Shown here: one piece after another, positions 5,020 through 13,913 of the stretch
Layout: each line of letters begins with the position of its first letter
How positions within the stretch are numbered: the first letter of the stretch is position 1
Source: a virus
UHGV virus genome: UHGV-0175781
DNA: 44,119 nucleotides
Direction: 5' to 3' (one strand)
Made by a program: the position numbers and the translations under genes
The notes under the pieces: model-generated
Database searches by the model: none
Told to the model about the DNA's origin: nothing
What the model saw: the letters and a program-made list of their open reading frames with translations, nothing else

Positions 5020-7311
5020 TTATTTCCTGTACCTGTACATAATGTCGCCTTCGGCGGCAAGTGGGAAGCCTTTCGCCCAAATAGGCAGGTCGCACATCAG
5101 CGCGCATAGCTCCTCGGTCGTGTAGTCGTCAGTATCCGGAACTTCGGTGATCAATTCATCGTGCACTGACAGGACGATCTCGTATCCCGCGGATTCAACG
5201 CCAGGCATGGACCATGCGAGGATATCGCGACACAGCGCCTGCACGATGTTTTCCGTCAGTTTGCCGCCGTAGGTATACTGGAAGCCCCACTGGCGCGTCG
5301 TCTGATTCTCGCCCTGGTATTTAATGCGGGTGCTGGTGCGTTTCTTGCCAGTATCTTCGTCGATCTCGGTAGTGACAGACAGCGCGATGCCCGGATAACT
5401 CATGATGCGCCCTGACGGCAACTCAATTTTAAGCCACCACCCCGCCGCGTTCGGGTCGTCGCGCTCCTCGTCGAAGGTTGGGTCATGCTTCGCCTTCGTG
5501 CGAACAATCTTAAGCGCTTTCCTGCCATCCGGGCGAACGTTCGCGCCAGCCCAGTACGCTTTGCCTGGATTGCGGATTGCACACAACACCGCGTCTTCCA
5601 GTTCGGCCCAAAAGGCTACCGTCTTCGGGTGGGCCTCACGCCACATACGTTTGATCGCGTCACACGTCAACCACACGTTTTTCGGCAGTATATAAGTTGG
5701 GCGCTCGTCCTTCTTGCCAGGCTTCGGCGGGCGCTTCGCTTCGTTGATTCGGGCGTACTCATAACCACGTTTCGCCGCCGCCCATATGTGGTCTGGGAAT
5801 GTGCCCTTCATCACGTCAGCCATCGCGTAAAGGTCGAGGCCCAGGTTTTTAGCGAACTGCAAGAACGCCGCAACGCCGCCGCCATAGCCTAGTCCCAATT
5901 CGCACGCCTTACCGATCTGGCGTAAGTCTTTGCGGTTGGCTTTAATGTATTCCGGGTCGAGGCCAAACATCTTACCGGCAGTTTCACAATAAATATCGCG
6001 ACCCGCCCTAAACACCATTAGCGCGGTTTTCTCGCCAGCGATCCAGGCGAGGCCACGCCCTTCCACGTTAGAATAGTCCGCTACGACAAACTTCTTTCCC
6101 TTAGCCGGAATAATGCACCCGCGAACGGTCGAGGCTGTTAACTTCGATATGTCATACGCCCAGTGTGCGGTCCCGCGTAACAGGGAGTTGATGCCGTTGG
6201 TAAGCATGTGCGACCGCACCCAAAACGCGACGTCGCTCTCGCCTTCACGGCGCTTAATCTTCCCTTCGTGGTCGTCGCTATACTCGCCGCGTGCCAGGTT
6301 TTGCGGCTGGAAGCCCTTACCGGCCCAGCGTAGCGTGCGCTTTGCCCCACCATACTGAAGACAACCACGGCGGCGACCATCGGCAGACAGCCCATTTACG
6401 AGCGGATTGTACTTAGTCGACGCCGTTGATGATGCCCCGAGGCGCATCTCGATAAGCACTTTGCCCTCGTCAGGGAAGTCTGGATCTTCAAGCAGGTCGT
6501 TAAGCGTGGATTTCTGCGCGTTGTGGATCGTGAACGCAGGCGCGAGGTCGCGCAGCGCGGGCAAGAAGTCATTGCCGGTCAGCTTACCGCCGAAGCGCTC
6601 CCAGGCTTCTTCCTTCAATTCTTCCTTATGCGCCTGCACCGCTTTGATCGCGGCGTTCGCCAGGTCAACGTCCACATAGAAGCCGCGGTCATTGATCAAC
6701 TGGTCAATAAGCAGGATTTCGTCTTCCTTCGGCGTGTTGCCCCAGTCCGGTATGCGCCAATAGACTTCCCTCATAGCGATGATATCCAACGCGGCATAGC
6801 GCAGGAATTTAGCCCACTCCTCGGGGTGCGTCTCGCGCGTGTAGCGGCGGATTTTGTAGGTCTTAGGGGTTGGCTTACAGAATCGTTTGATCAGCGCCTT
6901 GCCCGCCTTATCCTTCGCGTGCTCTGCGTCAACGCCCAACACCTGGCACTGCATATCGAGGCCACCCGGCAGCGCGTGTCGAAAGGCCATAATCATGGTG
7001 TCTTCGATCTGGCACACTGGCAGGTCAATGCCCCACTTCTCGCGAATGACCAGGCGGTCAAACAGGAGGCCGTTAGCCATCACTATTTTTGCTTTCTTGC
7101 GGGATACCCTGCGGAGCGCCTTGCGCAGTTCACGCGGCATTGTTGGGGACTCTGTGCAATCCCATGTCTGCACGCGGCCCTCGTCGATGGCGTAGGTGCA
7201 AATCATAATCTCGGTTGTTGGGTGCTCTGCGTAGGCGTATGCGCCCACTTTCTTCAGGTCCACCCCGCTAAATGTCTCGGTATCGAGAAAAAGGCGTTCG
7301 AAGTCTTTCAT
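5020..7311 (-). CDS. family A DNA polymerase (Pol I-like) with N-terminal 3'-5' exonuclease domain
   Basis: 763 aa; Exo I motif LFLDTETF; motif B K....GLGYGGG; motif C VLSVHDELITEV. Confidence 0.9.
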   Translation of the reverse strand: MKDFERLFLDTETFSGVDLKKVGAYAYAEHPTTEIMICTYAIDEGRVQTWDCTESPTMPRELRKALRRVSRKKAKIVMANGLLFDRLVIREKWGIDLPVCQIEDTMIMAFRHALPGGLDMQCQVLGVDAEHAKDKAGKALIKRFCKPTPKTYKIRRYTRETHPEEWAKFLRYAALDIIAMREVYWRIPDWGNTPKEDEILLIDQLINDRGFYVDVDLANAAIKAVQAHKEELKEEAWERFGGKLTGNDFLPALRDLAPAFTIHNAQKSTLNDLLEDPDFPDEGKVLIEMRLGASSTASTKYNPLVNGLSADGRRRGCLQYGGAKRTLRWAGKGFQPQNLARGEYSDDHEGKIKRREGESDVAFWVRSHMLTNGINSLLRGTAHWAYDISKLTASTVRGCIIPAKGKKFVVADYSNVEGRGLAWIAGEKTALMVFRAGRDIYCETAGKMFGLDPEYIKANRKDLRQIGKACELGLGYGGGVAAFLQFAKNLGLDLYAMADVMKGTFPDHIWAAAKRGYEYARINEAKRPPKPGKKDERPTYILPKNVWLTCDAIKRMWREAHPKTVAFWAELEDAVLCAIRNPGKAYWAGANVRPDGRKALKIVRTKAKHDPTFDEERDDPNAAGWWLKIELPSGRIMSYPGIALSVTTEIDEDTGKKRTSTRIKYQGENQTTRQWGFQYTYGGKLTENIVQALCRDILAWSMPGVESAGYEIVLSVHDELITEVPDTDDYTTEELCALMCDLPIWAKGFPLAAEGDIMYRYRK

Positions 7312-7478
7312 TGCTTAATCCTCACTACGGCGTCAGCGCTGCCGAACATGGAGAAGATACCGTCGGAAAGGGTTATCTCCTCGCCGTTGTTGCGAATCTC
7401 GGCAACGGTGAAATACTCGCCCAGCAATTTAGACCATACCTGCATTCCGACTTTTACTTCGCTGGCTTTAATGCGCAT
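7308..7478 (-). CDS. small hypothetical protein translationally coupled to the DNA polymerase (stop overlaps pol ATG)
   Basis: 56-aa ORF found by hand translation (below the ORF-track size cut-off); ATGA overlap with the polymerase start; AGGA SD. Confidence 0.4.
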   Translation of the reverse strand: MRIKASEVKVGMQVWSKLLGEYFTVAEIRNNGEEITLSDGIFSMFGSADAVVRIKQ

Positions 7479-7493
7479 TTTTCATTGTCCTAT

Positions 7494-7518
7494 TAAAAAG
7501 CCCGCATTAAGCGGGCTT
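7494..7518 (-). terminator. rho-independent terminator (AAGCCCGC-loop-GCGGGCTT plus T-run on minus strand)
   Basis: seen in sequence just downstream of the SSB-like gene stop at 7537. Confidence 0.55.
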
Positions 7519-7536
7519 GAATAGTGGGCTTTGCCC

Positions 7537-8259
7537 TTAACGGCGGCGACGTTTACGTGGCGCTTCGTCTTCGTCGTCGTCATCATCTTCGTCATCGCGT
7601 GGCTTACGACGTTTACGAGGTTTTTCATCTTCGTCATCGTCATCACGACGTTTTGACTTTTTGGACTTGCGTGGCACTTCATCTTCGTCGTCGTCGCCCA
7701 GGTCTTCGTCGGAGCAAGAAGATCCGCCACCGCCGAAGGCTTCGCCGTCATCGCGGAAGCGCAGACCCAAAAGACCGGCACCGAGTCCCTTGCCGTTGGT
7801 ATTGTTCCACGCCCAAATATCCAGGGACACGTTGCAATAACAACCGGAGTAGATCTCCTGGCCTTCGATCTCGTCGCCTTCTACGGTCAGACCTTGTTCA
7901 GTCTGCTTCTCGCCGAGTGACGTTTGAATGTTTGGCTGTTTGAACGATTTAGCGTTGATGTACAACATGCCTTCGAATTCTTCGGTTACTTCGTCGCGCT
8001 CGTCACCGTCGCGGACTGCGCATTCCTTAGAATCCTGGGCGTAGTGGCGGTCCATCCACTTATCAGCATTCTTCTCGGATTTCAGCTTGTCGGTGAGCAC
8101 TGCGCGCGCTGCCGCTTCCACTTTGTCCACCTGCGGATCTTCTTTATCAAGAAGAATCACTGCACGGTATGCCGGTTTTTGTCCATCCTGTTTAGGGGTA
8201 TCACGTTCCCAAATTTTAAGGAAACATACGCGCACATTTTTCAGGTTGACTTTAGCCAT
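7537..8259 (-). CDS. ssDNA-binding protein, DUF2815-like, with alternating acidic/basic C-terminal tail (ORF extends to 8280)
   Basis: core IYSGCYCNVSLDIWAWNNTNGKGLGAGLLGLRFRDDGEAFGG matches the DUF2815 phage SSB pattern; C-terminal 60 aa are blocks of DDDDEDE and PRKRRK. Confidence 0.6.
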   Translation of the reverse strand: MAKVNLKNVRVCFLKIWERDTPKQDGQKPAYRAVILLDKEDPQVDKVEAAARAVLTDKLKSEKNADKWMDRHYAQDSKECAVRDGDERDEVTEEFEGMLYINAKSFKQPNIQTSLGEKQTEQGLTVEGDEIEGQEIYSGCYCNVSLDIWAWNNTNGKGLGAGLLGLRFRDDGEAFGGGGSSCSDEDLGDDDEDEVPRKSKKSKRRDDDDEDEKPRKRRKPRDDEDDDDDEDEAPRKRRRR

Positions 8260-8349
8260 TTTCCAATTCCTCATTCTCACATGTATCGGGGTTATTATGA
8301 GCCACCCCGTTCGGCTTGGTTGCTAATCTACTTGGTTGCGCCTAAGCGG

Positions 8350-8592
8350 TCAAGCATTTTCATTAAAAAGATTTCGGGTCACGTAGTTGGTGGCGTTCTC
8401 GATCCAGCTTAGCGGCGGGCGTTCGATGTTATTTTCCACCCAATCGACGGCAACTTCGCTATAGCCGTCATCCAGCCCGCGGGTCGGATGGCGAATCATC
8501 CACGCCACCATTAACACGCCTTGCACGCAATGCAGGATAAAGCCCAGCGCGCCGAGCAAAAACATCAATAAGATTGCGAATACTTTATTCAT
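8350..8592 (-). CDS. small membrane protein
   Basis: 80 aa with N-terminal hydrophobic helix (FAILLMFLLGALGFILHCVQGVLMVAWMI). Confidence 0.5.
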   Translation of the reverse strand: MNKVFAILLMFLLGALGFILHCVQGVLMVAWMIRHPTRGLDDGYSEVAVDWVENNIERPPLSWIENATNYVTRNLFNENA

Positions 8593-10015
8593 TGCTTAAG
8601 TCCTCGTCAGTAGCTTCCGACCACGCAGGGCGAGGGTCGTCGATTGGTGCTAACACCGGTTTGGCTGGTGCGCGTGTGATTTTATCACACAGCTTCGCCC
8701 ACACTTTCGGTTTTTCGTCCTTCAGTACCTTCTCGGCATCCGTAGGGCTGAGCAATGTTTCTTTGTACATCACATCGCGCTTGATCCGGGCCTTCGTGAA
8801 GATTTCAATCACTTCGCTCTCGTCCGCCCACTTACGGATCCCTTCCCTACCGGCAACCATCTTAAGGCCCAACGATTCGCCATCGCCAGCCATGACCGCT
8901 TTGAATACCGCGGACTCGATAGCTTTGATGTGCTGGCGCATTGCGTCAAGTCCTTCATAAGCCTTGCGCAGTTCCGCCGCGCTCATAGCGCCGGGGGTGG
9001 ATTCCTTCTTGCCCCGTTTAGCACGTCTGGCAGCCTTCGGGGCTTCGCGGGCCATATTGCGGTCGTGGTTGGCGCACTCTTCCTCGGTTGCCACGCTCAC
9101 GTCGTCGCCCAGGTCTTCGTCGGTTGCCGTTGGTGGCGTCATCGTGTCGATTGCGGCCTTCGCCCGGACGCGGCACTGGTCCGCGAATCTGCACCACTGG
9201 CACGCATCAATGCTCGGTCGGAAGTCAGCGCGGGTTAGTCCCTTTTTGCCGCGTGCGTACGCATCGAGCGCGGCGATAGCGCGCTTGGACGCAAACTTCG
9301 CGAATATCTCCAGCGCTTCTACCGAAATATCCCACTCCGACGCCCCGCCGCAATACGGCTGGAAGATAACCAGGCGAACGGTCGTAATGTCGTACATAGT
9401 TTGCAGCTTGCGCAGCAGTCCGAGCGCGTACAACATAAGCTGTTTGTTCTCTTTCGCCTCGACCTTATGCCGCCCGGTCTTCAGGTCGCCAACAATCAGC
9501 ATGTACGTCCCATCGGTCTTTTTCATGACCATGACCATATCGGCAGTACCGAACGTTTTAATCCTGTTGCCGTCGATCTCGTAGCCTGAGTGAAGGACGC
9601 GGGTCAGATCGGCGCGCATCTCAAGCTGGACAAACTCCGCCACTTCGAGGAGCGGTCGCCAGTGGTCGATGTACGCGTCGCACTGTTTCACCATGTCGTC
9701 GTTGACCAGTACGCCGCCTTTCGGTGCTTTAGGGTGTGCCTTTACTGGCCCCTTGCCTTCGTTCTCGACGTAGCACCCTTTATACGTCTTCGCGGTTATC
9801 AGCTTCTCACCGGCGATAATGCGGTTTAGCACCACCTCAGATACGGTGTGCATACTCGTACCGTTAATCGCGGCTTGCCCGGATTCGTTCGGGATATCTT
9901 TTTCCACCACCAGGGCGGCAGGGCAACCCATCCATTTTTTAGCACCGGATGGGCCAAGTAATGAGTGTTCCGTATTGCTACCGGATTGCGTTTTACGTTT
10001 TGGTTTAATCGCCAT
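8585..10015 (-). CDS. PD-(D/E)xK Cas4/RecB-like exonuclease (DUF2800-like)
   Basis: 476 aa; N-terminal LLGPSGAKKWMGCP, VGDLKTG motif, C-terminal cysteine cluster CQWCRFADQC typical of Cas4/AddB-type nucleases. Confidence 0.7.
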   Translation of the reverse strand: MAIKPKRKTQSGSNTEHSLLGPSGAKKWMGCPAALVVEKDIPNESGQAAINGTSMHTVSEVVLNRIIAGEKLITAKTYKGCYVENEGKGPVKAHPKAPKGGVLVNDDMVKQCDAYIDHWRPLLEVAEFVQLEMRADLTRVLHSGYEIDGNRIKTFGTADMVMVMKKTDGTYMLIVGDLKTGRHKVEAKENKQLMLYALGLLRKLQTMYDITTVRLVIFQPYCGGASEWDISVEALEIFAKFASKRAIAALDAYARGKKGLTRADFRPSIDACQWCRFADQCRVRAKAAIDTMTPPTATDEDLGDDVSVATEEECANHDRNMAREAPKAARRAKRGKKESTPGAMSAAELRKAYEGLDAMRQHIKAIESAVFKAVMAGDGESLGLKMVAGREGIRKWADESEVIEIFTKARIKRDVMYKETLLSPTDAEKVLKDEKPKVWAKLCDKITRAPAKPVLAPIDDPRPAWSEATDEDLSNE

Positions 10016-10503: not shown

Positions 10504-11043
10504 TTAGTCTTCCAGTTCGAAATAGGTTTCGACGATTTCTTTCAGGTCTTTGTGGAAGTCTTCTACGTCGTCATCTTCCAGTTTAGCGATTGATTTGATC
10601 TCGAACGCTTCCAGCAGGTCGTCGAATTCGTCGTTCGCATCGTCGTCATCGCCACCGGCAATAATCGCGGCATACTGTTTGATTTCGTCGCGCATCTCTG
10701 CCAGCGGGTCGGCATCTTTCTTACCTTTGCCTTTCGCTGGTGCTTTTTTACCCTTCGCCGGTTTTTCGTCTTCGTCATCCTCGTCGTCATCCTCTACGAC
10801 TTCTTTTTTAGCCTTACCTTTAGACTTGGTTTCTTTTGCCGCGCCTTTTTTCGTTTTAGGCGTATCTTCGACTTCGTCCTGATCGTAGTCGTCTTCGACT
10901 TCAGTCTCCGGCTTGGCCTTGCCCTTCTTAGCAGTGCCGTTTGCTTTTGGGTCTACGGCAGCGCCAACAGTTTCATAATGTTTAGCGATGGTTTCCAGTG
11001 CTACTACGCCGCGAGTAATCAGGTTTATGAATTGTTCCAACAT
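10504..11043 (-). CDS. highly charged, low-complexity early protein (acidic blocks alternating with lysine-rich blocks)
   Basis: 179 aa; first gene downstream of the near-consensus leftward promoter; GGAGA SD. Confidence 0.6.
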   Translation of the reverse strand: MLEQFINLITRGVVALETIAKHYETVGAAVDPKANGTAKKGKAKPETEVEDDYDQDEVEDTPKTKKGAAKETKSKGKAKKEVVEDDDEDDEDEKPAKGKKAPAKGKGKKDADPLAEMRDEIKQYAAIIAGGDDDDANDEFDDLLEAFEIKSIAKLEDDDVEDFHKDLKEIVETYFELED

Positions 11044-11642: not shown

Positions 11643-13913
11643 ATGACCATGAGTTTAATTAAATTCGCCGTAACAAGACCCGCTAAAAAAGGCGAAAAAG
11701 CCAGGGCGGAAAACTTCCAGATGACTACCGAAGAGTTTTTCGAATTTATCAATGATGCGAAAGAAATCTCCTCGGTGCATATCAACAAGACGGAAGATAA
11801 AGCCGAGTATGCGCGCCGCAAGCGTAAGGCCGACGGCATCGTGGCGTATACCAGTGACGGATTGCGTCGTAAGACCAGTGCGGTGGACCGCTCGATCCTG
11901 TTCTTCGATATTGACCGCACCGACACCCGCACCCTACGCCGCTGCCGTAAGGCGTTCATTGACGCGGGTCTTGAACACGTATTTCACACCACAACCGGCG
12001 ACCGTCACCCACTGAAAGGTGGAACACGTTGCGCTCGCTTCCTGGTGTTGACGGACAAGCCTGTACCGGCTGAAGACCTGGGACGCGCCCAGTATGCCCT
12101 GTTAGCCCAACTGGGTCTGTCAGATGTGGACTTCGACGATTGCACGAAAGACACAAACCGCCTGATGTACCTGCCACACCAGCAGTCTGTAATAAAGTGT
12201 CATTACGGCAAACGTGCCCGCGTCCGTCGTCTGCTTCGCCTGGCGGATAAGCTGGGGGTGGATAAAGAGGAAGTACGCCGCGAACTAACCAAGGGAGACG
12301 ACGAAGTGGCGGACGGCATTCTGGACTGGTGCTTCCAGGCAGGATTCGAACCACTGTCGTCCGGGCGTGGTTATGAGGTGCCGTGCCCGAACGAACATCT
12401 GCACAGCGGCGAAGGGTCCACCGCCATAATGGTTAAGGATGGCGAGATCCGTTTCAAGTGTATGCACACCGGAAACGAGTGTTGCTCGGAACTGAACAGA
12501 CACCAGCACCTGGCGCTACGTCTTATCGGGATCCCGGACCACCTGAACGTCGAGCCACACAATATGTCCCGTAAGCAAATCGCCGCCATCCTTCCGGGGC
12601 TGGACGACGAGGAAGTGGAGTCGTGCTATGAACATATTGTTGATGCGGTTGGCGACGGCGAAGAATACGGCGTGTGCACCGATGCGGATCTGGATAACGA
12701 GCCGGTTGCGCTGTTCAGTAAGCACGACCCGATCATCGAGGGGTTGATTAACTTTAAATCGACCTGGTACATGGCTGGCGAGTCGAATATCGGTAAGTCT
12801 TTCTATGTGCTTGGGCAGATGGGCGCGGTTGCCGCCGGTATTCCGTTTGGCGGTGCGAAGGTCGTCCAGTCTCATTGCTTCTATTTCGACGCGGAAGGTG
12901 GCGAAGCCTCCAACCAGCGCAAAGAAGCATTGCAGATTAAATACGAGCACGACCTGGACAAGCTGCACATTATCGACCTGCAATCACGCGGCTGGGATAT
13001 CACAAGCAAGTCCGGCTTGCGTGAAGTTATCAGCTTCATCAATCGCACCGCTAACGGTGAACCTGTTGGCCTGGTGGCGTTCGACTCACTCAACCAGACT
13101 GTTGCGCTGCGGTCCGCCGATGCTAAACCGTTTGACGAGAACAACGCCAGCGATATGGGTGAAGTGGTCAAAGCGCTGAAAGCCATTGCGGAAAATACAG
13201 GTGGCAGTGCGGGCGTCATCCACCACCCGGCGAAGGGTGCAAACGGCAGCAGAACCCCACGCGGGTCCGGCGCGCTGCATGGTGCTGTCGATTCAGCGTT
13301 CTTCCTGGAACAGCCGGACGACAACCAGCCCGGGCAATTGAACCTGTATCATGAGAAGTCACGTAACGGCATCAAGCAAGCGCCGCGCGGCTTCGTCCTG
13401 CTCAAGTGCAAGGTGAAGGTAGATCTCCGCAAGTCAGAAGCGTTCGAGGCGCACCAGTCCACCAGCACTGGGCCAGACTTCGGCGACGTGGTTGCCGGAT
13501 GGGACGTCAAGCCGATTGCCTCCACGCCTCGCGACGAGACTCTCTACCTCGTACCGGTTGCCCTGGCACCGTTCGCTATAGAACAGGCGAAGGCAGCAGG
13601 CAAGGCCGCGGTTAAGGAAGAGAACACCGCCGGACCGCGCAACGAAAAAGAGAAAGTGCTTTATGCGGCCCTGGAAAAACTGATGGAAGATAACCCGGAC
13701 CATACTGGATTCAGTAAATCGGCAATTGTCCGCCAGGCCGGACTCGCGAAAGGTGGCACATCGACGAAGGCAATCGACGATATGGTCGAGCGCGGCGTAC
13801 TCGGTTTTTATACAGATCCGCACACTGGGGCCATCTATGGGTCGTCGAATATCGTCATCAAAACGAATATACCCATCACGCTTTCGGCGACCGATGACGA
13901 CCTGAAAGATTAA
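11643..13913 (+). CDS. DNA primase/helicase (AEP-type primase-like N-terminus, zinc-binding region, C-terminal RecA-fold ATPase)
   Basis: 756 aa; LFFDIDR acidic motif; Cys/His cluster CPNEHLHSGEGST...CMHTGNECC; Walker A GESNIGKS; Walker B LVAFDSL. Confidence 0.75.
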   Translation: MTMSLIKFAVTRPAKKGEKARAENFQMTTEEFFEFINDAKEISSVHINKTEDKAEYARRKRKADGIVAYTSDGLRRKTSAVDRSILFFDIDRTDTRTLRRCRKAFIDAGLEHVFHTTTGDRHPLKGGTRCARFLVLTDKPVPAEDLGRAQYALLAQLGLSDVDFDDCTKDTNRLMYLPHQQSVIKCHYGKRARVRRLLRLADKLGVDKEEVRRELTKGDDEVADGILDWCFQAGFEPLSSGRGYEVPCPNEHLHSGEGSTAIMVKDGEIRFKCMHTGNECCSELNRHQHLALRLIGIPDHLNVEPHNMSRKQIAAILPGLDDEEVESCYEHIVDAVGDGEEYGVCTDADLDNEPVALFSKHDPIIEGLINFKSTWYMAGESNIGKSFYVLGQMGAVAAGIPFGGAKVVQSHCFYFDAEGGEASNQRKEALQIKYEHDLDKLHIIDLQSRGWDITSKSGLREVISFINRTANGEPVGLVAFDSLNQTVALRSADAKPFDENNASDMGEVVKALKAIAENTGGSAGVIHHPAKGANGSRTPRGSGALHGAVDSAFFLEQPDDNQPGQLNLYHEKSRNGIKQAPRGFVLLKCKVKVDLRKSEAFEAHQSTSTGPDFGDVVAGWDVKPIASTPRDETLYLVPVALAPFAIEQAKAAGKAAVKEENTAGPRNEKEKVLYAALEKLMEDNPDHTGFSKSAIVRQAGLAKGGTSTKAIDDMVERGVLGFYTDPHTGAIYGSSNIVIKTNIPITLSATDDDLKD

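Follow-up and report, generated by a model that had tools for sequence, protein, structure and literature searches.

The window analysed here, that is, the whole stretch of 44,119 nucleotides of the virus genome UHGV-0175781, belongs to a Dhillonvirus-like siphophage of Escherichia coli and contains, at 7537..8259 on the minus strand, the gene encoding an SSB (single-stranded DNA-binding protein) whose C-terminal tail alternates between acidic and basic blocks. We find that this tail is genuine, that it is translated and subject to purifying selection, and that it consists of two parts, namely a conserved acidic-leucine motif that follows a GGGG hinge and, after it, a variable array of 2-4 charge-block units (three in the window), in which ~7-11 acidic residues lead through an x-Pro junction to ~6-9 basic ones. 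This description of the tail we regard as practically certain. The gene and its parts are the following (ssDNA, single-stranded DNA; pLDDT, predicted local distance difference test score):

7537..8259, minus strand: SSB coding sequence, T7 gp2.5-like / Enc34-type, 240 amino acids, with ATG at 8259 and stop codon at 7537-7539
7735..8259, minus strand: ssDNA-binding core with an oligonucleotide/oligosaccharide-binding (OB) fold, residues 1-175 (AlphaFold2, Foldseek)
7723..7734, minus strand: GGGG hinge between core and tail, residues 176-179 (sequence; about here the pLDDT falls from 97-98 through 73 to 53-64)
7699..7713, minus strand: S-D-E-D-L motif in the proximal tail, residues 183-187 (motif scan)
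7645..7695, minus strand: charge-block unit 1, DDDEDE-VP-RKSKKSKRR, residues 189-205 (sequence, repeats)
7597..7644, minus strand: charge-block unit 2, DDDDEDE-KP-RKRRKPR, residues 206-221 (sequence, repeats)
7540..7596, minus strand: charge-block unit 3, DDEDDDDDEDE-AP-RKRRRR, residues 222-240 (sequence), the basic C-terminus

The core domain itself is ordinary and already known. The Pfam family PF10991 (Enc34_ssDNA-bd, formerly DUF2815) matches it with an E value of 1.3e-31 and 110 bits, against a cut-off of 26, over model positions 2-173 of 176, and PHROG 112 ('Gp2.5-like ssDNA binding protein and ssDNA annealing protein') does so with an E value of 1e-57, which bears out the DUF2815-like core proposed in the initial annotation. 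At the sequence level, the core matches the PDB entries 4klk, 4jg2 and that of Enc34 ORF6 (5odj); the AlphaFold2 model, built on 69 sequences, has a pLDDT of 95-98 over residues 1-172, and in a Foldseek comparison with the PDB it retrieves 4klk (1.6e-12), 5odl (3.2e-12), T7 gp2.5 (1je5, 9.5e-07) and 5odj, all at a probability of 1.0. In Enc34 ORF6, the aromatic Trp150 and Tyr156 stack against the bases of ssDNA; a single pairwise HMMER alignment indicates that the equivalent of Trp150 is kept in the window SSB (the W of DIW), followed two residues on by a second Trp, and that the position of Tyr156 is occupied by Asn. The orthologues from SECphi4, SECphi6 and SECphi18, annotated as 'predicted SSB (Gp2.5 family)', trigger the defence system Retron-Eco8 as T7 gp2.5 does, and expression of the SECphi4 orthologue activates it in the same manner. 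In sequence, fold, gene context and the possession of a disordered, net-acidic tail, the window protein is a member of the DUF2815/Gp2.5-like family, namely the replication/recombination SSB of a Dhillonvirus-type phage and a monomer-sized OB-fold protein of the Enc34 ORF6 / T7 gp2.5 kind, for which a preference for ssDNA is predicted. What it lacks is the purely acidic, hydrophobic-ended tip, the end being APRKRRRR instead; the deviation is confined to a single trait of the tail and does not touch the domain family.

The tail (7540-7720, residues 180-240) opens with SSCSDEDLG and continues with three [D/E]7-11-x-P-[K/R]6-7 units, the last of which ends in RRRR. Its 61 residues include 27 acidic and 20 basic ones, for a charged fraction of 0.77 and a net charge of -7, and the charges are segregated far beyond expectation from composition: the charge segregation parameter delta is 0.459, compared with 0.091 +/- 0.039 in 2000 same-composition shuffles, none of which came as high (maximum 0.24), and the Das-Pappu kappa is approximately 0.58. 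The same units are apparent in the DNA, where a 39-nt segment occurs three times at spacings of 60 and 54 nt (85% and 69% identity to the reference copy), so that the tail DNA forms a tandem repeat of 54-60 nt with degenerate copies; by itself, Tandem Repeats Finder gives weak signals of period 3/6/12 only, and the units become visible in a separate repeat search and in the protein. Thus, both the tail of about 60 alternately acidic and basic residues and its repetition at the DNA level, which the initial annotation had reported, are confirmed. Disorder prediction, proposed there as a check, agrees with this picture: in the AlphaFold2 model the tail, at a pLDDT of 53-64, has no secondary structure except for a four-residue helix at 184-187 (D-E-D-L), and it is predicted to be disordered. 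Among the open reading frames (ORFs) of at least 60 codons in the window, only the SSB and the protein encoded at 10504..11043 have four or more alternating charge blocks, which argues against a genome-wide compositional habit.

So could the tail be an artefact, that is, a mis-framed simple repeat, or could the repeats act as DNA, for example as iterons of an in-gene origin, in the manner of the lambda ori that lies inside gene O? Other frames of this low-complexity stretch are also open, the DNA is indeed repeated at 54-60 nt, and two database proteins, P0005 (phage vB_EcoS-22664B1) and P0010, read the tail in an alternative frame. However, the annotated frame runs straight on from the Pfam-matched core, and it is kept in all 15 complete loci among the 16 related ones that we took from IMG/VR (the sixteenth contig is cut by a sequencing adapter), with 2, 3 or 4 units in each. 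The APRKRRRR end is invariant in 14 of these 15 Dhillonvirus loci, the fifteenth having KPRSRRNRR, and the differences between the tails are insertions or deletions of whole units: unit 2 is absent from the two-unit tail of locus L007, and unit 1 is tandemly duplicated in the four-unit relatives (54-nt copies at 83-85% identity). Pooled pairwise Nei-Gojobori counts over the related loci give a ratio of nonsynonymous to synonymous substitution rates (dN/dS) of 0.145 in the tail versus 0.065 in the core, with synonymous changes predominating. This value implies selection, somewhat relaxed, on the protein in the annotated frame, whereas the synonymous divergence, 0.33 in the tail and 0.31 in the core, is equal in the two parts and hence indicative of no extra constraint on the DNA itself, which rules out a role of the repeats as iterons. 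Furthermore, at larger evolutionary distance the grammar of the protein is conserved but the DNA sequence is not. As for the discordant frames, P0005 results from a 2-nt insertion in MZ234008.1 (vB_EcoS-22664B1; locus L017, ~2050-2060; GACGCGATGAC versus GACGATGAC) that frameshifts the annotated tail, with the normal frame and stop codon intact downstream; this insertion is probably a sequencing or assembly error, and the two frameshifted proteins, P0005 and P0010, reflect mistakes or mutations of very recent date in records other than the window. The possibility that the tail is a frame artefact, raised along with the initial annotation, is already contradicted by these observations and, together with a DNA-level role, seems to us almost inconceivable. 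At the end of the truncated contig (L015, IMGVR_UViG_3300045988_003101), the SSB frame runs into ...AVSYTHLRAHET, which is the translated Nextera transposase adapter.

The distribution of the tail in the family has to be assessed from the core. A first homologue search gave 104 proteins, nearly all with alternating tails, but its candidates were chosen by shared words, a choice that is biased by the low-complexity tail, so we did not use it for frequencies and relied instead on a core-only HMMER search (residues 1-179) against 1.84 billion cluster representatives, which produced 1976 hits at E <= 0.001. Among the best 150 of these, 145 sequences were usable for a census of tails: in 130 (90%) the tail is short and free of basic blocks, and the other 15 (10%) contain one or more. 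The canonical tails (n=132, both searches) have a mean length of 26 residues, and in 98% of them, compared with 32% of the alternating tails, a hydrophobic residue is found among the last three. In a rough neighbour-joining tree of the cores, which is too crude to lean on, the window belongs to a group of 68 members, 99% of them alternating and most of them basic-ended; a second group (n=24) has many units and mostly an acidic, hydrophobic-ended tip (DDDDIPF, DDDDLPF, DDDVA, DDDDY), the repeats of this clade being located between the core and a DDDIPF- or DDDLPF-type tip, and parsimony on this tree counts about 15 state changes. The tails of named phages are as follows:

Dhillonviruses: 2-4 units, basic end
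Jerseyvirus S104: one unit, ...DDEDETPRRERRRNR
Kagunavirus fEg-Eco19: one unit, ...DEAPRRERRRR
Kagunavirus St162: two units, acidic end
Serratia phage Scapp: three units, acidic end
Serratia phages Tsm2 and Otaku, Hafnia phage TS33: alternating (from their 90%-identity clusters)
Xanthomonas phage Xoo-sp2, Pseudomonas phage UF_RH7: canonical acidic

The Dhillonvirus type alone accounts for 155 phage-collection records at 90% core identity or more. Judging from these sequences, the alternating tail is a trait of a large lineage that comprises Dhillon-, Jersey-, Kaguna- and Scappviruses along with many metagenomic relatives. The initial annotation, which called the tail unusual, was right in that it is not a feature of the whole family, given that 130 of the 145 nearest clusters are purely acidic, but this phage is not alone in having it: the tail is lineage-specific, and the lineage in question is large.

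The alternating tails follow a common grammar. In the 113 of them that we compared, down to a core identity of ~25-35%, there are 1-9 units per tail, with acidic blocks of 8.9 +/- 3.6 and basic blocks of 8.5 +/- 2.5 residues; 98% are net negative; proline is present at 94% of the 291 acid-to-basic junctions, typically as DE-[K/A/R]-P-[R/K], and the basic-to-acid junction is usually (R)SR. Within this pattern, which stays, the identities of K versus R and of D versus E turn over freely, as would be expected if selection acted on the pattern and not on the sequence. The units might conceivably have been born by duplication of a DD-[IL]-P-[FW] tip, which has the same x-Pro register, but only about 10 of the 132 canonical tails end in this way, and we leave it as a remark. 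A protein search with the tail only (58 amino acids; 747 candidates) gave no match at E <= 1. The tail alone (residues 191-246 when numbered from an upstream GTG at 8280) has a weak match, at E 6e-4, to positions 301-361 of the 421-position profile of PHROG 15004 ('single strand DNA binding protein'), and this unrelated family of phage SSBs may carry a similar charge-block tail. Three distant DUF2815 relatives (P0155, P0178 and P0240) have long Arg-Asp or Arg-Ser repeat tails (DDDDDRGSRSRSR repeated, or RDRDRDADRGRDRRDD) that resemble eukaryotic mixed-charge or RS-like domains and end in a canonical DDLV or DDLPF tip.

The other part of the tail, the acidic-leucine motif, recurs in two further replication proteins of the window:

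8585-10015, minus strand: DUF2800 PD-(D/E)XK exonuclease, 476 residues
9110..9124, minus strand: T-D-E-D-L inside the exonuclease, residue 298 of 476 (motif scan)
8597..8611, minus strand: T-D-E-D-L at the exonuclease C-terminus, ...EATDEDLSNE* (motif scan)
11643-13913, plus strand, opposite to the SSB gene: primase-helicase
13890..13904, plus strand: T-D-D-D-L at the primase-helicase C-terminus, ...SATDDDLKD* (motif scan)

A scan of the six frames of the window for D-[D/E]-D-L yields five occurrences, four of which are [S/T]-D-[D/E]-D-L in replication proteins. These four copies in three proteins compare with an expectation of 0.014, and none of 20000 shuffles of the three proteins reaches four. 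The SSB copy is conserved in 16/16 related loci, and the copies in the exonuclease and the primase-helicase are kept in every related locus that reaches those genes; in the locus that diverges most, at 77% SSB identity, each of the four has the form ATD[D/E]DL, the SSB copy being ATDDDL. The C-termini of the exonuclease homologues from Jersey-, Kaguna- and Scappviruses and from Pseudomonas phage UF_RH7 likewise combine acidic residues with Leu. In the SSB, the motif is the only segment of the tail that AlphaFold2 endows with structure, and the canonical tails of the family begin with an equivalent [DE][DE][F/L]x[DE] motif in the same place as SDEDL. Thus, the hydrophobic-anchored acidic element is present in the window SSB after all, but where the tail begins, not where it ends, and it is this conserved motif, not the repeats, that most likely contacts partners. 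On the strength of its recurrence, (A)-[T/S]-D-[D/E]-D-L probably serves the proteins of the replication module as a docking motif in common; as such, it would predict the wiring, from SSB, exonuclease and helicase, of a module that is widespread.

The second protein of the window with charge blocks is the following:

10504..11043, minus strand: PHROG 3127 protein, function unassigned; N-terminal helix, linker ~27-112, C-terminal three-helix domain
10708-10953, minus strand: linker stretch ~31-112, disordered, charge-block units

Here delta is 0.25, compared with 0.079 +/- 0.026 in 2000 shuffles, none of them as high, so the alternating K-rich and D,E-rich linker ascribed to this protein in the initial annotation is real; its designation there as the first early protein is a positional guess, based on the place of the gene at the head of the leftward block. 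The linker is made of [D/E]n-(K/A/T)-P-(A)-K-x-K-K units, 0-3 per homologue, the number of which differs between near-identical phages, and the gain and loss of these units explains why most homologues range from 115 to 179 amino acids. The linker thus shares the acid / x-Pro / base grammar with the SSB tail, but it is built with lysine. The N-terminal helix is conserved; in the AlphaFold2 model the linker has a pLDDT of ~40 and the C-terminal three-helix domain, which is strongly acidic and contains DDDDANDEFDDLLE, one of 85-94. No Pfam match was obtained for the protein, and a fold search with the model against the PDB returned nothing below E 0.7, the domain being a generic three-helix bundle. 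In the phage collection, homologues occur only in Dhillonvirus-like genomes; a gene in the same place in Kagunavirus fEg-Eco19 (L019, 504-1004) is a probable homologue.

How does this tail compare with those of known SSBs? Enc34 ORF6, from an Enterobacter/Hafnia phage (5odj, 5odk, 5odl), and the structural-genomics homologues 4klk and 4jg2 share the Pfam family and fold with the window SSB, and the likeness to ORF6 extends to an apparent equivalent of the stacking Trp, to the DUF2800/SSB/PolA neighbourhood and to an unstructured C-terminus that opens with an acidic-hydrophobic motif. However, the Enc34 tail is short, with 16 of the last 29 residues acidic, no basic block and the end ...WDEDEV, in contrast to 61 residues, three basic blocks and RRRR in the window; the Asn that aligns with Tyr156 is another apparent difference. 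T7 gp2.5 (1je5) is similar in the type of OB-fold, in its replication SSB and annealing role and in that both orthologue sets trigger Retron-Eco8, but its tail (207-232), which competes with ssDNA and binds polymerase and helicase, is purely acidic and needs the terminal Phe232, whereas in the window tail the sole hydrophobic anchor is the Leu at the start, and the distal part is a block polyampholyte with a basic end. E. coli SSB also has a long disordered segment after the OB core, and the second clade, with its succession of core, repeats and tip, has the same layout; the E. coli protein differs in OB subtype and oligomeric state, in a linker that is Gly/Gln/Pro-rich and nearly uncharged (as opposed to 77% charged blocks here), and in having the acidic tip that Dhillonvirus SSBs are without. 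In pattern, the tail resembles the Ki-67 repeats, NPM1 and arginine-rich mixed-charge domains, which are likewise disordered, with a high charge fraction and alternating blocks of ~6-11 residues, and in which blockiness drives phase separation (PMC9106583, PMC9324279). These eukaryotic regions have no homology to the window tail, which is much shorter (3 units), sits on an SSB and is bacterial/viral.

What, then, might such a tail be doing? The account that we favour, at a rough probability of 0.45, is drawn by analogy and combines a docking motif with a multivalent charge-block module. SSB, exonuclease and helicase would dock via ATD(E/D)DL on one common site, most likely on the polymerase, in the way in which the acidic tails of gp2.5 and gp4 of T7 both bind gp5. 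The charge-block array would be a multivalent electrostatic module for self-association and cooperativity. The acidic blocks could stand in for ssDNA and fold back into the basic cleft that binds DNA, as the acidic tail of T7 gp2.5 does, and the interleaved basic blocks would make it possible to string several acidic blocks together at a tolerable net charge while pairing with acidic blocks in their own tail or in adjacent ones, and with DNA. Along an ssDNA lattice, the outcome might be salt-sensitive tail-to-tail association, that is, cooperativity, possibly with condensate-like clustering; the role of the array would be akin to that of the disordered linker of E. coli SSB, but built from charge blocks, and the number of units, changing by unit duplication or deletion, would tune its valency. 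With a charged fraction of 0.77, a delta of 0.459 and predicted disorder, the tail qualifies as a blocky polyampholyte, and we infer, by analogy, that it may undergo salt-sensitive self-association or phase separation. The T7 gp2.5 tail is reported to promote cooperativity and contact with polymerase and helicase, its last Phe being needed for polymerase binding (bioRxiv 10.64898/2026.02.22.705581); deletion of the tail makes Enc34 ORF6 bind double-stranded DNA (dsDNA) besides ssDNA (PMC5686142); the alternating charge blocks of Ki-67 promote phase separation (PMC9106583); and the linker of E. coli SSB is reported to control cooperativity and condensation.

Several points weigh against this account. 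We found in the literature no experiment on any alternating SSB tail, and the mechanism is assembled from analogy and sequence statistics. The spread of 2-4 units among near-identical phages, and the single unit in Jersey- and Kagunaviruses, mean that valency cannot be under tight constraint; the dN/dS of the tail is about twice that of the core; and, instead of the polymerase, the shared motif might bind the SSB cleft or some host protein. The mutations by which the orthologues escape Retron-Eco8 affect the core (T56P) or the promoter, never the tail, so that this data set is silent on tail function. Finally, high charge in a linker need not increase the cooperativity of an SSB: a charged linker from a Plasmodium SSB reportedly lowered cooperativity when swapped into E. 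coli SSB.

Alternatively, the basic PRKRRK-type blocks might be arms that bind ssDNA, a second strand or duplex and so raise affinity and annealing, as in a single-strand annealing protein that works with the DUF2800 exonuclease, the acidic blocks mainly keeping the arms auto-inhibited until DNA is bound. Such a function would suit a family that is classed as both SSB and annealing protein and that adjoins an exonuclease, as well as the terminal block that is always basic in the window lineage; furthermore, the unmasking of dsDNA binding in Enc34 ORF6 upon removal of the acidic tail indicates that tail charge controls DNA selectivity. We nevertheless consider DNA arms unlikely, given that net negative charge in 98% of the tails argues for the dominance of the acidic function and that the repeats of the second clade, located ahead of a canonical acidic tip, are linker-like. 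The polarity of the contacts could also be partly inverted in this lineage, with the basic blocks of the SSB capturing the acidic-leucine tips of the exonuclease and the primase-helicase, and maybe the acidic domain of the PHROG 3127 protein, so that ssDNA coated with SSB would attract several partners per tail. That these tips are conserved, that the SSB is basic-ended and without the usual tip, and that the PHROG 3127 domain is strongly acidic and includes DDDDANDEFDDLLE all speak for this hub, but the presence of the same motif in the SSB itself is a better fit to a common third-party receptor, and the exonuclease of UF_RH7 ends in MDDDL although the SSB tail there is canonical, so that the acidic tip does not co-vary with a basic SSB tail; an inverted hub is, in our opinion, very doubtful. 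Reading PRKRRK as a nuclear localisation signal was dismissed as meaningless in a bacterial host.

The pattern might even be functionless, the repeats arising by slippage or unequal recombination in a GAY/GAR-rich tract and persisting only as a harmless low-complexity spacer, disordered and roughly balanced in charge. Indeed, the units are DNA-level tandem repeats, their number varies from 2 to 4 among phages that are 90-98% identical and from 1 to 9 across the family, and the tail evolves roughly twice as fast as the core. A tolerated spacer is quite unlikely all the same: a dN/dS of 0.145 is far below neutrality; down to 25-35% core identity, the tails preserve their block sizes, the proline at the junction (94%) and a net charge that is negative (98%) while the K/R and D/E residues turn over; alternating tails are found in at least two separate groups of the core tree; and the grammar recurs in another protein encoded in the same operon. 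If, on the other hand, the favoured account of docking motif and charge-block module is carried further, the SSB tail of the Dhillon/Jersey/Kagunavirus group might have turned into a bipolar electrostatic scaffold for a condensate-like replication/recombination compartment on ssDNA, with competition between the motifs of SSB, exonuclease and helicase for one docking site, repeats that interlock from one SSB molecule to the next, the similar repeats of the PHROG 3127 protein joining in and the repeat number tuning the material properties. This extension is distinctly unlikely, but, if true, the compartment would be a counterpart, in bacterial viruses, of the eukaryotic charge-block condensates.

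The function of the repeats is, accordingly, a matter of conjecture. To our knowledge, a short acidic, hydrophobic-ended tail is treated as universal for bacterial and phage SSBs in textbooks and structural papers, a generalisation that the alternating tails contradict in hundreds of sequenced phages, a large and well-sampled group. Literature searches for alternating or basic SSB tails, for DUF2815, for Dhillonvirus and for charge blocks in phages revealed no paper that describes or tests such a tail; the sequences of the orthologous SSBs are given in a supplementary table of the defence-escape study, the figure of which omits the 'flexible C-terminal residues', and in the Retron-Eco8 work with T7 gp2.5, deletion of the tail left activation unaffected. 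The matter is relevant to defence in that SSBs of the window type are sensed by Retron-Eco8 and their tails have so far been left out of structural figures. The natural range of 1-9 units amounts to a ready allelic series for relating charge patterning to cooperativity, ssDNA/dsDNA discrimination and partner recruitment, and the system is simple and genetically tractable, the Dhillonviruses of the BASEL collection as well as SECphi4 and SECphi18 having already been used in defence studies.

The remaining features of the locus concern the setting of the SSB gene:

5020-7311, minus strand: family A DNA polymerase (PolA) (ORF, Pfam)
7308-7478, minus strand: 56-codon ORF, PHROG 10102, between the SSB and polymerase genes
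7495..7518, minus strand: intrinsic-terminator-like hairpin, AAGCCCGC-UUAAU-GCGGGCUU and then a U run, ~20 nt after the SSB stop codon

Over 7300-8400, the window shares 93-95% identity with vB_EcoS_Sponge, KarlBarth, JL1, EK99P-1 and SSL-2009a, and this region matches 159 phage records, in many cases in two pieces, which was the first sign of the length variation. In the ORF listing, the SSB frame is open over 7537..8280 on the minus strand, from a GTG at 8280; this start is ruled out by the ATG at 8259, which has a GAGGA Shine-Dalgarno sequence 9 nt upstream, and by the orthologues, all of which (those of SECphi4 and SECphi18 included) begin with MAKVNLK, so that the length of the SSB is 240 amino acids. 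The order of genes on the minus strand, DUF2800 nuclease, SSB, 56-codon ORF and PolA, is that of the standard DUF2800-exonuclease / SSB / PolA module, described for this SSB family as duf2800-gp2.5-polA (PMC8093625).

The hairpin at 7495-7518 has a folding energy of -24.6 kcal/mol (z -3.9), and none of 200 shuffles folds equally well; it is not among the hits of a consensus terminator scanner, and Serratia phage Scapp has an annotated terminator at the equivalent position. Its location, after the SSB stop codon and ahead of the 56-codon ORF and polA, suggests that read-through into the polymerase gene is attenuated. At 8325-8353 on the minus strand, upstream of the SSB gene, there is a sigma-70-like promoter (TTGACC, 17-nt spacer, TAGATT). 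One SECphi4 escaper of Retron-Eco8 is mutated in the intergenic stretch upstream of its SSB, as would be in keeping with a promoter of the SSB gene's own. The SECphi4 and SECphi18 orthologues of the 56-codon ORF have the frameshift E21fs in defence-escaper phages, listed beside DNA-polymerase escape mutations (Table S2, bioRxiv 10.1101/2022.08.27.505566).

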